From Octopus vulgaris (lineage: Eukaryota): a stretch of 64,000 bases of DNA. This document shows positions 2,870 to 44,431 of this stretch, in pieces (within the stretch, counting starts at the first letter, position 1; the number at the start of each line of letters is the position of its first letter). The notes under the pieces were generated by a model. It saw nothing but the letters and a program-made list of their open reading frames with translations, made no database searches and was not told the origin of the DNA. The translations under genes and the position numbers were made by a program. The stretch lies in the NCBI GenBank assembly GCA_951406725.2, contig OX597818.1, forward strand, positions 14,756,001 to 14,820,000, in the 5' to 3' direction.

Positions 2870-3560
2870 TATATACATGCATGCATACATACATATATGG
2901 GTACAGGACGTCACCAATGATGCAAATAACATGAAATATGTAAACAAACGCGAGGAAAACGGGTGAAGTACGGAAAAAATGGAAAACAGCACAAGTTAAC
3001 ACAGAGAAAGGACTCTTCATCAGTTGTCGGCTGTCTATCTACTCCTCATTTCGAGTATTTAACGACAATATGAGTCTCCAAAGATAGTTGCTCCCATGAA
3101 TTCTAAAATAAGATTTAGGATTTATGGAGGGTCAAAGCTGGGAACAGAAAAATGACAGTGGAGACATACAGGGAAACCGAACGAAAGCAAACATGGAGGG
3201 TCGTTAGACCAGAACGAGAGGAAAATAGCGAACACTGCGAGAGAAGAGAGAGAGAGGAAAACACGTCCGTCCATTTAAACGTCCATGCAGGAAATGAAAG
3301 ATGGTCACGTAAAGAAAAGTAAGATGGACGATGGTCACGTGTGAGCAATGAGAGAGAGAGAAAGAGAGAAAAAGAGAAAGAGGGAAGAGAGAGACAGATA
3401 GCAAAACAGTGAAGGAGGGGGGGGGAGAAAAGGGAAATACAGAAGGATGGAGGAAGAAAACAGTATAGAGTTGAGAGTGGCTTCAAATAGGCGAAGATAA
3501 ACTTACTTGGAAATGGATGCGTCGCGTTGAATTAAATAATAAATAATAGGTAATGTATAA
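2870..3560 (-). mobile_element. Penelope-like/retrozyme-like non-coding element fragment in a (TA)n tract, carrying a permuted hammerhead
   Basis: 2890-3077 is repeated at 3625-3797; flanked by (TA)n; hammerhead core CTGATGA and GAAA on the minus strand. Confidence 0.6.
3012..3087 (-). ncRNA. Candidate non-circularly permuted (pseudoknotted) hammerhead ribozyme
   Basis: Minus strand CTATCT..CTCAT A TTGTCG ttaaat ACTC GAA ATGAG gagt AGATAG acagc CGACAA CTGATGA A GAGT; all three stems pair and the core is intact. Confidence 0.7.
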
Positions 3561-3569
3561 TATATACAT

Positions 3570-3797
3570 ACATATATATATATATATATATATATATATA
3601 TATATATATATATATATATACATGCATACATGCATTTATGGGTACAGGACATCACCAGCGATGCAAATAACATGAAATACGTAAACAACGAGGAAAAAGG
3701 GAAAACAGGACAAGTTAACACAGAGAAAGGACCCTTCATTAGTTGTCGGCTGTCTATCTACTCCTCATTTCTAGCATTCAACGACAATATGAGTCTT
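3570..3797 (-). mobile_element. Second, 5'-truncated copy of the 2870-3560 element, with a mutated permuted hammerhead
   Basis: Direct repeat of 2890-3077; core reads CTAATGA; bounded by (TA)n. Confidence 0.65.
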
Positions 3798-4039
3798 ATA
3801 TATATAGATACATTTTTCTCAAATGAGTCTTTTACATATATATATATATATATTATTCTCCCGCAGGAATGTTGGTGACAATGACTTAGCTGGTTGAAAC
3901 TTTAAGTCACTGTCAACAAGATTAATAAATTTGTACCCTTCAAAAGTATTGATTAACCCATCAGATTAATGTAAAACTGTTTTTATTTTAATTGAACATA
4001 GAAACAAACATCAATATATATGTATATATATAACTAAGC

Positions 4040-4352
4040 CTCCGTCGGTTACAACGACGAGGGTTCCAGTTGATCCGATCAACGGAAAAGCTTACTCGTG
4101 AAATTAATATGCAAGTGGCTGAGCACTCCACAGACACATGTACCCTTAAAGAGTTCTCAGGGAGATTCAGTGTGACACAGAATGTGACAAGGCCGGCCTT
4201 TGAAATACAGCTACTACTCATCGTTGCCAGCTGAGTGAACTGGAGTAACGTGAAATAAAGTGCCTTGCTCAAGGGTCACAATGCAACGCCGGGAATTGAA
4301 TTCACGACCCTATGATCGTGTGGCGAATACCCTAACCCCTAAGCAACGCGCC
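4040..4352 (-). mobile_element. tRNA-derived CORE-type SINE (family C)
   Basis: Minus strand GGCGCGTTGCTTAGGGGTTAGGG head, GAATTCAATTCCC B-box, CCTTGAGCAAGGCACTT CORE-like motif. Confidence 0.8.
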
Positions 4353-4395
4353 TTTACATATATACGTATATATGGTTAGTATATTTGTAGAAAGT

Positions 4396-4655
4396 GGAGG
4401 CGCGTGGCTTAGTGGTTAGGGTGTCAGCACCATGATCGTAAGATTGTGGTTTCGATTCCTGGACCGGGCGACGCGTTGTGTTCTTGAGAAAAACACTTCA
4501 TTTCACGTTGCTCCAGTCCCCTCAGCTGGCAAAAATGAGTAACGCTGCGATGGACTGGCGTCTCGTCCAGCTGGGGAACACATACGCCATAGAAACCGGG
4601 AAACCGGGCCCATGAGCTTGGCTAGGATTTAAAAGGGCGCATTTATTTATTTTAT
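4396..4655 (+). mobile_element. tRNA-derived CORE-type SINE (family C variant), head-to-head with the previous copy
   Basis: TGGCTTAGTGGTTAG A-box, GGTTTCGATTCC B-box, TTCTTGAGAAAAACACTT CORE-like motif, TTTA tail. Confidence 0.8.
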
Positions 4656-41399: not shown

Positions 41400-42214
41400 C
41401 TCCAATCATGCTTCTGCACAACTCTTCTCAACCAAAGCTGTGCAATTGCACAAGACTTGTTATGAAGAAATTAATGAGAAATCCCATAGAGATCACAATA
41501 ATTTCTGACTGCAGAAAAGGCGAAGATGTTTTTATTCCTCGCTTATCTTTAATACCTTCCAATATGCCCTTCGAGTTCGAACGACTTCAATTTCCAATAC
41601 GTCTGTCTTTTGCGATGTCCATTAATAAGTCCCAAGTTCAGACTTTGAAAGTTGCTGGTTTGCAATTAGTAGAGGACTGTTTCTTACACGGTCAGTTTTA
41701 TGTTGGAACATCTAGAGTGGGGAGCAAGAACAATCTTTTCAATTTTGCCCCTACTGGTAAAATCTGAAACATGGACTATAAGGAAGTTTCTATCAAGGAG
41801 TCAACAAACTAAAATTTTGAGAATGATTAATAACTTTGAGTCAACATCTATATTCGTCTTAGAAAATCTATTGTATTTTTGTTTGTTGTAATACTTAAGT
41901 GCAATCAATTATAGTACATATGTTTTTAGTTTTCCCCGAACTTTTATTTACTTATCTTGTGCTAGACATATGCCAAAGTCTGTGCGATGTTTGCTTCATT
42001 TATAGACTGAAATACTATAGGTCATAGATCAGAAGTTTATATGCATCCATGATAATTTTGGCCAGAAGAAAACAGCTCTATCGTCTACATGAAAGTTAAC
42101 AACTTTTTTTTATATATAATCAATACAATCTAAGTGAATAACTTTCAACATTCATAGTACAATTTTGGCAGCTTTTTTCTACCCAGCCCAGTCAATGACG
42201 GGTGTTTTTGCTAA
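41400..42214 (+). mobile_element. Helitron 3' fragment encoding a PIF1-like helicase C-terminus
   Basis: ORF 41408-41767 [22 protein letters not shown]...[11 protein letters not shown]; terminal hairpin CCCAGTCA-A-TGACGGG then CTAA. Confidence 0.85.
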
Positions 42215-42824
42215 TATGTATATATATATACATATATATATACACACACACACACTTAAATAACTATATGCATACAGACGTCTGTGCGCGTGTGTGTATG
42301 TGTGTGTGTGTATGTGTACAACTTGCATATCATATATTGCATATCGCACATCATTTATTTCATGCTCTTGTCTGGATATTTGAATATAATATCTGTAAGA
42401 GCAAATACCCACGTTTTATGTATAAGTTTAACACTTCTTAACGCCTTGAACTTCTTATATATGTAATAGAAATAGATCGTATTGTCAACCAAGCAGGATG
42501 AAGCAAATGGTGTTTCATATTACGATTTGAACTTGTACATTTGCTCTCTATGTCACACAGCAACTGAACCAACTGTGTGTGTATCACATATGAAATAAAT
42601 AGATATATATTTATCCTATGCACTACAGAGATTTACTCTGTCGATTTCTGGACGTTTTACAATGAGAAGTAACCACAAATGAGTAATTAAATTTAAATGA
42701 ATTCAAAGAAAGAGTGAATTTGTAGTTTTCAAGGAAGCATTACGAAAGTAAGTAAAATAGTCATAATAAGTAATCAAATCTGTGATGGGTAATACTTTGT
42801 TTATGAGATGTTTATGACCTACAC

Positions 42825-43147
42825 AAGAGGTTCTCAACTGAGGTCTATACGACTTTTGTGGGGTTCATACAAACAAAACAGTAGAGTGGGCATCCACTTA
42901 AGTATTTTACGGGTCTTTGGGAAATTGTTGCTTTAGATGTATTTATTGCCAGAAACCGCAAGATTTCTTTCTCTGATGTTTTACATAGTTCAACCTACAC
43001 AAGGAGGTATACGATAAACAAAATAGGAATTTTTAAAGAAGTCTATAAAATTAGTTTTCAAACATGGAATGGTGATGGGGGTCCGCCAGAGTAAAATAGT
43101 AATCAAAGGGATCCATAGTTATAAAAAACAATGGCTGAGAACCACTG
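42825..43147. mobile_element. hAT (Charlie-like) MITE
   Basis: TIR AAGAGGTTCTCAAC / GCTGAGAACCACTG; exact 8-bp TSD ACCTACAC; related to 14933-15548. Confidence 0.85.
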
Positions 43148-44105
43148 ACCTACACCTTAGAGACATTCTTATCGATTTTGTAGAAATTTTACACGCGATT
43201 ACAGTTCATGCCCATTAGTTGATACCAGCATGAAGAGGGGGATTTTAGATTTTGAGCGGGGGATTTTAGATTTTGAAGAAAATTGACCCATGAGTAAAAT
43301 TAAGCACATCGACATATGAAACATCCATCATTCATATAATGTATTGGGATTTAAAATTCAATGGGATATTTTCATGTACATGGTCGCATGGATTATATTT
43401 TATGACATAACCTTAACACTTTTCTTCAGATTTTGCTGAGATTGGACACGCTGATCAATTTTGTACAGACGATGGCATTAAGGGGAGAGAAATAAACAAA
43501 CATCACTCTCAACGAGTCGAGGTACACCCAAAAGTTTGACTGCGATTTCAGATGGTCTAGTATGTAGGAATATGTCGAACATTTAACCGGGTAAAATCCC
43601 AGCTGAACCAGATATAACATCTTGATAGGTAATAGTTGGCACAGGGAACGTAGAAGATTTCAATACAAGGTCAGAGGTGGGCTTAACTTCAACACGGAAA
43701 GCACGAGCAAAGGCAGGTCCAACAGCAAGTATATAGAAGACCGGCCCGAGATCTGACATAGTACTCCACTCCCAGAATGCCAAGGAGATCCTCCTGATCG
43801 AACTCACTGTGCCTTACGAAAGCAGGATTGATGATACCCATGTCTACAAGACAGAAAAGTACGCCGACTTGGCCAGAGACTTGAGGGACGCTGGATTCAA
43901 AACCAAAGTCTTCGCAGTCGAAGTTGGCGTCAGGGGATTTGTAGGCTCGTCTGCCTACAGCCTCATGAAACAGCTGTCCATCTCTGGAAGAAGCAGAACT
44001 AGAACCTTGAGGGAAAAGCGGCGGATTAGGTCTCAAGTTGGATCTGGTCTAGGAGGAACAAAGGCCAACTTCATAAAGACTTAATTTGTCCCAATTCAAC
44101 CGAGT

Positions 44106-44176
44106 GCTAGATTGGCGTAGTCGTGTAGGCCTGCGCCTCTGGAGCCGGCGATCCAGGTTCGAATCCCGCTGGGACC
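44106..44176 (+). other. tRNA(Gln-CTG)-like sequence with Pol III A and B boxes; not a functional tRNA
   Basis: TGGCGTAGTCG A-box, CTCTGGA anticodon-loop-like, GCGATCCAGGTTCGAATCCCGCTGGGACC; stems do not pair fully. Confidence 0.6.
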
Positions 44177-44364
44177 GTGAGAAAAAAGAACCCTCGCACC
44201 TGGGTCGTCCGAACGCTCGCCAGATGAAAACGAGTACTTAGCCCTTCTCACGGCCGCAGCACACATCACAGAAGTGCTAGAAACCAGAGAGACCAATCCC
44301 ACCAAAGGCGTACTAAACAGACAGCAAGTCGACATCCGGAAGTCATGACTCGGATGTGGTCTGG

Positions 44365-44431
44365 CCTCCCTAGACTGTTAGGAGTTAAGGACCGAAACAC
44401 TTGCCTAAAGGGGGTTCCTCCTCTGAAGACC
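44365..44431 (+). ncRNA. Candidate permuted hammerhead in the RLE element 3' UTR
   Basis: CCTCCcTAGac TGT T AGGAG ttaaggacc GAA ACA cttgcCTAaaGGGGGttc CTCCT CTGAAGA; stem II poor. Confidence 0.5.

Follow-up and report, generated by a model that had tools for sequence, protein, structure and literature searches.

Whether a hammerhead ribozyme can still be assembled when its core strands occur out of their usual order, and what such an RNA would do for the element that carries it, are the questions raised by a 64,000-nucleotide stretch of the Octopus vulgaris genome (assembly GCA_951406725.2, contig OX597818.1, positions 14,756,001 to 14,820,000; hereafter the window). The chemistry of the hammerhead is established, and an initial reading of the window (the original prediction) had placed a non-circularly permuted, pseudoknotted form of this ribozyme at the ends of retroelements at five loci. 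The present analysis upholds that claim and assigns part of the fold to different strands. Very probably, the 3' ends of Naiads, a group of Penelope-like elements, and a set of short non-coding repeats carry a hammerhead core in which the 5' strand of stem II is followed by the cleavage block (S; stem III-NUH-stem I), the G block (G; GAAA-stem III) and the C block (C; stem I-CUGANGA), and which would cleave itself after NUH. The short repeats are likely, from their sequence features, to be non-autonomous derivatives of Naiads.

Strand order of the core and the families that carry it

The order S-G-C was found at all five window loci, where stems I (5-6 bp) and III form pairs as claimed. Using a strict descriptor (S-G-C order, stem I of at least 5 bp and stem III of at least 4 bp), three of the five loci were recovered versus 0.08 matches per dinucleotide shuffle (100 shuffles), and a relaxed form permitting one core mismatch returned exactly these five loci versus 0.23 per shuffle (30 shuffles). 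With the strict descriptor, two further copies were detected in 200 kb of neighbouring DNA, versus 0.1 in shuffled sequence. Since the matches lie far above the shuffled controls, the S-G-C order and stems I and III are regarded as real; the cut positions originally proposed, after 3069 (minus strand) and after 37386 (plus strand), agree with the descriptor anchors. Types I, II and III, which have the cyclic order C-G-S and no pseudoknot, are ruled out by this order, and hepatitis delta virus-like and twister folds, considered by eye, were set aside for the five loci since CUGANGA, GAAA and NUH each adjoin the proper stem. No ribozyme family was present among the 150 of 166 matches listed in an Rfam scan of the window, and a scan of 18 metagenome loci gave three matches, none to a ribozyme family; the expectation that standard models miss the motif is therefore correct for Rfam.

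The five loci represent four dispersed repeat families, namely A (3012-3087 and 3731-3793), B (37369), C (44365) and D (36259). Families B and D share about 70% identity over 75-106 nt and are related, so that the four families correspond to three lineages, which is the number of unrelated lineages originally proposed. First-look candidate counts in the genome were 1307, 1222, 96 and 859 for A, B, C and D, respectively, and exact-pattern matches numbered 1,173 for B and 949 for D. All four families are situated in (TA)n tracts, and no element-encoded protein was present at any locus seen. Tandem units occur in families B (843 bp, one motif per unit) and D (about 790 bp); in assembled contigs, the junction of a circular RNA would be identical to that between tandem units. 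Four runs presumed to be RNA contain family B as assembled contigs, in which ends are not visible, and these count neither for nor against the reading.

Stem II and the opened core

In the original prediction, stem II was completed by the strand that follows CUGANGA. This part did not hold, as the majority lines of families B, C and D (30 loci per family) give 0 bp at offsets 0 and 1. The majority line of family A allows a downstream stem II of 4 bp at offset 1, two G-U pairs among them, and the apparent four Watson-Crick downstream pairs of copy 3012-3087 arise only from two G>A changes, which disrupt the upstream stem II and helix P5, respectively. In the majority lines of all families, a 5-6 bp complement of the pre-GAAA strand lies 21-24 nt 5' of the cut; overall, the stem II partner is found 21-26 nt 5' of the cut, partly beyond the segments delimited at first. 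The "interrupted extension of stem III" also had to be reassigned: it is a separate helix, P4, which joins the far ends of stems I and II, beginning 0-2 nt past stem II and ending within about 2 nt of stem I.

Two further helices complete the layout. In P5, the strand 3' of A9 pairs with a far-upstream strand and not with the pre-GAAA strand, and the P6 hairpin fills the space between P5 and G10.1. The full strand order is P5a, P6, IIa, P4a, IIIb-H-Ib, linker, IIb-GAAA-IIIa, P4b, Ia-CUGANGA, P5b. In families A, C, D and E, the last being a Naiad-linked family described below, the majority lines have no unpaired bases at the three joints (junction gaps 0,0,0). We infer that the core link from A9 to G10.1 is replaced by the two extra helices, which would form a four-way junction. 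Non-circular hammerheads have been published, as was supposed at first; the form seen here differs from the published type SGC in that its block C is interrupted between A9 and N10.1 and the completing strand of stem II comes from upstream. The junction, the identity of the host elements and the damage to the window copies had been missed in the original prediction.

Some loci depart from this layout. In L132 and L134, which belong to subfamilies of family A, stem II could be formed with either the upstream or the downstream strand (downstream 7 and 4 bp, respectively), and these loci are a possible intermediate or switch between the SGC and core-opened forms. Two further repeat families with the same motif were noticed in L190 (minus strand, near 3181) and in the flank of L207; in the L190 motif, the strands flanking A9 and G10.1 may pair directly, with P6 absent.

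Covariation and shuffling controls

Helix conservation was assessed in 19 parsed representatives, comprising eight from the O. vulgaris genome (the best-scoring copy for families A-E, single copies otherwise) and 11 from metagenomes; the family copy in the L207 flank failed the parser and was excluded. The core motifs CUGANGA, GAAA and NUH are kept in the family majority lines and in these representatives, and are broken in two of the five window copies. The stems adjoin the core, with the pairs U16.1-A15.1 and G10.1-C11.1. Stem I, stem II, stem III and helices P4, P5 and P6 all display several Watson-Crick pair types at most positions: three to five per position in stem I, four in stem III beyond the fixed U-A, four to five in P5, five to six in P6, and two to five in the outer part of stem II, in which C11.1 is present in 19/19. 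P4, with 3-11 bp, is found in every representative. The base after A9 could pair with C11.1 in only 3 of the 19, a 4-bp downstream stem II at offset 0 is available in L134 alone, and the upstream stem II is more stable than the downstream option in all of them.

As an upstream stem II was demanded by the parser itself, the upstream segments were shuffled. For the 11 least related representatives, this yielded combined p values of 9e-6 (upstream stem II) and 2e-12 (P5/P6 junction). A kink-turn-like arrangement at the stem III/P4 boundary (GA before stem III and GA or AA after it) was detected in 6 of the 19 versus 0.46 expected, and characterizes a subset only.

Naiads as host elements

Naiads have been described as (TA)n-targeting Penelope-like elements without canonical hammerheads, and eight Naiad families bear unexplained "HHR_half_core" notes, with the other half of the core 35-50 nt away (Craig 2021, PMC8557442). 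Family E corresponds to the published octopus Naiad at its 3' end (with 385 exact matches of 16 nt in the genome) and lies 3' of reverse-transcriptase fragments in L171, whose best database relative, P0001 (46% identity), has the N-terminal GIY-YIG domain, CxC and DKA that Naiads have. The same three features occur in metagenome carriers of the motif such as L227, L228 and L230, and family E groups with them. By scanning metagenome contigs with five such proteins, 79 loci were obtained (the best 80 of 383 kept), 32 of which fall into two clades that hold all motif carriers, one of them including L171; the quick tree used here sorts loci and makes no claim of a single origin. The core-opened motif was identified in the 3' untranslated region (UTR) of 11 of the 24 Naiad loci with at least 300 nt beyond the reading frame, and L238, whose sequence ends before block C, is a twelfth candidate. 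CUGANGA was absent from the tails of all 47 more distant loci (0/47), and no relatives of P0001 were found in viral contigs.

The supplement of Craig 2021 was also used, its sequences being parsed by eye among the matches listed. The octopus Naiad ends, three Acropora ends and one further record (names by record order) have the core-opened layout, and five nematode Naiad consensus ends parse as type CSG, with block C intact and the same fourth helix. A (TA)n target, a fixed 3' end, 5' truncation and partial tandems were all observed here, and these features, together with inversions, are shared with published Naiads (PMC8557442); families A-D differ from them in encoding no protein at the loci seen. 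The shared motif, the (TA)n targets and the tandem structure suggest that families A-D may be mobilized by Naiads. No autonomous partner of families A-D was found; a family D copy near a reverse transcriptase in L223 and a family F copy in L190 are separate insertions.

Several other features of these elements were noticed. Two Naiad 3' UTRs without CUGANGA (L241:2480-2760 and L248:1275-1560) share a conserved, helix-rich stretch of about 170 nt without an Rfam match, which may belong to a different class of ribozyme that takes the hammerhead's place. Loci L207-L210 hold a young Penelope-like element whose copies are near-identical and whose open frames reach 753 aa (reverse transcriptase followed by a C-terminal GIY-YIG); a short type-I hammerhead was found in L209, and the core-opened motif is absent from the element's own 3' UTR. 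In distant loci with an N-terminal endonuclease (L263, L265, L267-L269, L275, L276, L281, L284, L286, L288, L291 and L297), one and the same cysteine position of the GIY-YIG domain reads as a stop, and a weak match to a selenocysteine insertion sequence (SECIS) is present in L286; selenocysteine recoding is likely in this set.

Insertion ends as a likely record of cleavage

If the RNA is cut after NUH before it is copied, insertions should begin at or just past the cut. Family B was sampled with a pattern starting 38 nt past the predicted cut, which leaves upstream ends unselected, and 80 loci gave 72 distinct 5' ends, the rest being further array units, duplicates or ends beyond the fetched DNA. 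Among these 72, 18 ends lie at 0 to +9 versus one at -10 to -1, and 33 at 0 to +37 versus two at -38 to -1 (binomial p 2e-8); six insertions with different flanks begin exactly at N1.1. Farther upstream, ends are sparse over 700 nt, with a background of about 0.05 per nt. The 3' ends are fixed, 25 of 26 distinguishable ones being at +150/+151 after collapsing those with identical TA flanks. In family D, two of 30 copies begin exactly at N1.1 and none at -47 to -1. The 5'-end step of family B is likely to be an in vivo footprint of cleavage, and the end pattern fits reverse transcription primed at one set position, with some templates cut and others uncut or circular.

Proposed mechanism

In the proposed explanation, P5, P6, stem II and the A9-G12 side of the core would form a four-way junction that stands in for the A9-G10.1 backbone link, and P4 would take over the role of the stem I-stem II contact. 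Read-through or tandem transcripts would be cut once per unit, each motif presumably acting as a monomer, and the 5' end of the RNA would be defined in this way. Priming by the Naiad enzyme would then occur at a constant position, which in family B lies 150 nt past the cut, with (TA)n as the target, and copying would proceed towards the 5' end, such that a cut template would give short inserts ending at or just past the cut, and an uncut, re-ligated or circular template would give longer and tandem inserts. On the wider scale, a hammerhead whose core is open between A9 and G10.1, with a four-way junction closing the gap, is probably the missing Naiad ribozyme across several animal phyla; the Naiads would represent a natural series in which a single pseudoknotted circle is opened in different ways (core-opened in cnidarians and molluscs, CSG in nematodes), and their insertion ends would record in vivo cleavage to the nucleotide.

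Several results weigh against this explanation. The 5'-end step is clear in family B only, which counts against the general claim: family A has six versus three ends in 20-nt windows and none at 0, family C has none of nine ends at the step, and family E has four of 39 at -2 to +7. No reverse transcriptase is joined to families A-D in loci L001-L226, and the full motif is missing from 13 of the 24 Naiad loci with an adequate tail. The pair counts are not independent of the model, because an upstream stem II of 5 bp was a condition of the parser and families A-E were each represented by their best copy. The p values of single representatives for stem II are weak (0.002 to 0.55), and the P5/P6 score is 0 for A3 and M234 and weak for F and M245. 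Family A retains a possible downstream stem II (4-7 bp including G-U), and family B permits two alternative junction registers. Finally, the triple-crossed fold and the junction would have to be compatible in three dimensions.

Alternative explanations

A first alternative accepts the fold and denies self-cleavage, attributing the 5' ends to transcription start, a host nuclease, the element's endonuclease or stalling of the reverse transcriptase. The restriction of a strong step to one family is in its favour, as are the predicted status of the cleavage itself and the report that metazoan Penelope-like hammerheads cleave poorly in vitro (PMC4209133). It is nevertheless unlikely, since the catalytic positions are all kept across lineages with unrelated stems, the step coincides with a nucleotide predicted beforehand, and the density of ends upstream of the step falls to the background; as for stalling, the helices around N1.1 would already be open when the reverse transcriptase arrives.

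A second alternative holds that the ribozyme acts as a dimer, two tandem units exchanging strands, and that the pseudoknot of a single unit would thereby be relaxed. Families B and D do exist as tandem units, minimal Penelope-like hammerheads have been described as cleaving as dimers (PMC4209133), and in family B, three of the 33 arrays beginning at 0 to +37 traverse a second, uncut site. However, every helix has 4-12 bp within one unit, unlike the 1-2 bp stem III that forces dimers, and for the published SGC and CSG ribozymes a single transcript suffices for cleavage (PMC10085705), which makes a dimer very unlikely.

A type-SGC hammerhead of the ordinary kind, whose stem II uses the strand immediately 3' of CUGANGA, would suit the 4 bp at offset 1 in family A, the 7 bp in L132 and the 4 bp at offset 0 in L134 (where the scan finds no P5/P6), but it is highly improbable given the absence of pairs beside the core in the majority lines of B, C and D, a downstream stem II of at most 1 bp at offsets 0-1 in 11/11 metagenome Naiads, the greater stability of the upstream stem II throughout, and the occupation of the downstream strand by P5.

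Relationship to known ribozymes and repeats

The core-opened form can be compared with several described systems. Type SGC and type CSG hammerheads cleave (Eckert 2023, PMC10085705). Type SGC was reported from metatranscriptomes only, with no case in the genome of a known organism except one weak GCS candidate, and type CSG was published from two metagenome sequences (PMC10085705). The octopus motif shares with type SGC (HRIMA-1 and variants) the S-G-C order, the triple-crossed stems, the full core consensus, a short linker between stems I and II and a fourth helix joining the far ends of these stems; in type SGC, however, the stem II strand directly follows CUGANGA, whereas here it lies on the 5' side and P5/P6 replace the A9-N10.1 link (PMC10085705). 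Type CSG has the same cyclic strand order and a fourth helix comparable to P4, but its block C is intact, its chain is opened between stem III and P4, and no four-way junction is described for it (PMC10085705).

Other hammerheads show individual elements of the arrangement. The pseudoknot-containing hammerhead shares a helix that holds stems I and II together; its A9-G12 pair is stacked on G10.1-C11.1, and neither a chain break nor an added junction figures in the passages covered (Zhan 2024, PMC11300833). The natural CChMVd viroid hammerhead tolerates an extra base between A9 and G10.1 (PMC3705267), which, as described there, is a one-base insertion after A9 only, whereas here the chain is broken and a junction inserted. 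With regard to the repeats, non-LTR (long terminal repeat) retrozymes likewise consist of non-coding tandem units with one ribozyme each and derive from Penelope-like repeats, but they are defined by type-I hammerheads and are mostly dimers, in contrast to the non-circularly permuted and core-opened motif of the octopus repeats (PMC4209133; 10.64898/2026.07.22.740005). In the literature covered, which leaves most subscription journals outside, no paper was found with a break between A9 and N10.1, or with such ribozymes in Naiads or animal genomes.

The copies in the window

All five window copies are truncated or mutated (Table 1). The family A copy 3011..3133 has one mismatch apiece in stem II, P5 and P6. 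The second family A copy lacks the stem II 5' strand, P5 and P6, carries G5A at 3740 and C11.1A at 3772, and is predicted to be dead. The family D copy, also predicted to be dead, is truncated inside the stem II 5' strand with loss of G10.1 and has G12A at 36291. This change is a CpG decay; at the G12 site, the first 100 of the 949 family matches comprise 80 CG, 15 TG and 5 CA. In the family B copy, the core, stem I, stem II, stem III and P4 are intact, and the P5 and P6 strands were removed by 5' truncation; the partial unit to which it belongs is 97.5% identical to another genomic unit over 564 nt. In the family C copy, stem II contains a double change from C-G to U-A shared with L084, a mismatch is present at the fourth pair of stem III, and P5 is damaged.

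Table 1. Positions of the motif copies and of their repeats within the window
Feature	Position	Strand	Remark
Family A copy, whole motif	3011..3133	-	from ruler, descriptor anchors and helix model
Family A copy, 5' part	P5 5' strand 3133-3128; P6 hairpin 3127-3094; stem II 5' strand 3093-3089; P4 5' strand 3087-3082	-	
Family A copy, cleavage block	stem III 3074-3070; H17 3069; stem I 3068-3063	-	cut predicted after H17
Family A copy, G block	stem II 3' strand 3057-3053; G12 3052; stem III 3049-3045	-	
Family A copy, C block	stem I 3029-3024; CUGAUGA 3023-3017; P5 3' strand 3016-3011	-	
Family A non-coding repeat with motif	2839..3640	-	between (TA)n tracts; extent approximate
Second family A copy	3730..3796; H17 3788	-	5'-truncated about 9 nt before cut
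Family D copy	36254..36332; H17 36274; CUGAGGA 36319-36325	+	repeat to about 36433
Family B copy	37362..37444	+	cores and stems by descriptor and majority line
Family B copy, cleavage side	stem II 5' strand 37365-37370; stem III 37379-37385; H17 37386; stem I 37387-37392	+	
Family B copy, G side	stem II 3' strand 37397-37402; G12 37403; stem III 37406-37412	+	
Family B copy, C side	stem I 37425-37430; CUGAAGA 37431-37437	+	
Partial family B unit	37362..37948	+	unit 843 bp, non-coding tandem, one motif each
Family C copy, whole motif	44320..44440	+	
Family C copy, 5' part	P5 5' strand 44320-44331; P6 hairpin 44332-44357; stem II 5' strand 44358-44362	+	
Family C copy, middle	H17 44379; stem I 44380-44384; stem II 3' strand 44389-44393; G12 44394	+	
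Family C copy, C side	stem I 44418-44422; CUGAAGA 44423-44429; P5 3' strand from 44430	+	
Family C non-coding repeat	43737..44466	+	ends in (TA)n about 87 nt past predicted cut

Additional features surround these copies. The family B copy is flanked by 81-bp direct repeats (98.8% identical) at 37282-37361 and 37948-38028, and past the second repeat, 9 nt of family B beginning precisely at the predicted cut lie between TA runs. Within family C, a tRNA-like stretch (window about 44115-44180) may be an RNA polymerase III promoter, and no tRNA was called by ARAGORN on this family. Elsewhere in the window, the open reading frames at 41318-41767 (plus strand) and 49442-49840 (minus strand) resemble what we take to be Helitron/PIF1-type helicase fragments, and those at 56688-57221 (plus strand) and 59741-60202 (minus strand) are presumably related to the ends of LINE-type (long interspersed nuclear element) reverse transcriptases.

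Implications

If the proposed fold is correct, it would break the stated assumption that hammerhead blocks cannot be interrupted (PMC10085705) and would add a topology beyond the six listed permutations. Non-circular hammerheads would no longer be rare finds in metatranscriptomes, but would number thousands of copies in the genomes of animals. The A9-G10.1 side of the core, by accepting a junction, would also offer a new site for the design of switchable ribozymes. For the Penelope-like group, the map of family B insertion ends would link ribozyme cleavage to the template of retrotransposition, which has been an open point. Moreover, the finding would remove the published argument that Naiads thrive ribozyme-free and that hammerheads may merely parasitise Penelope-like elements.

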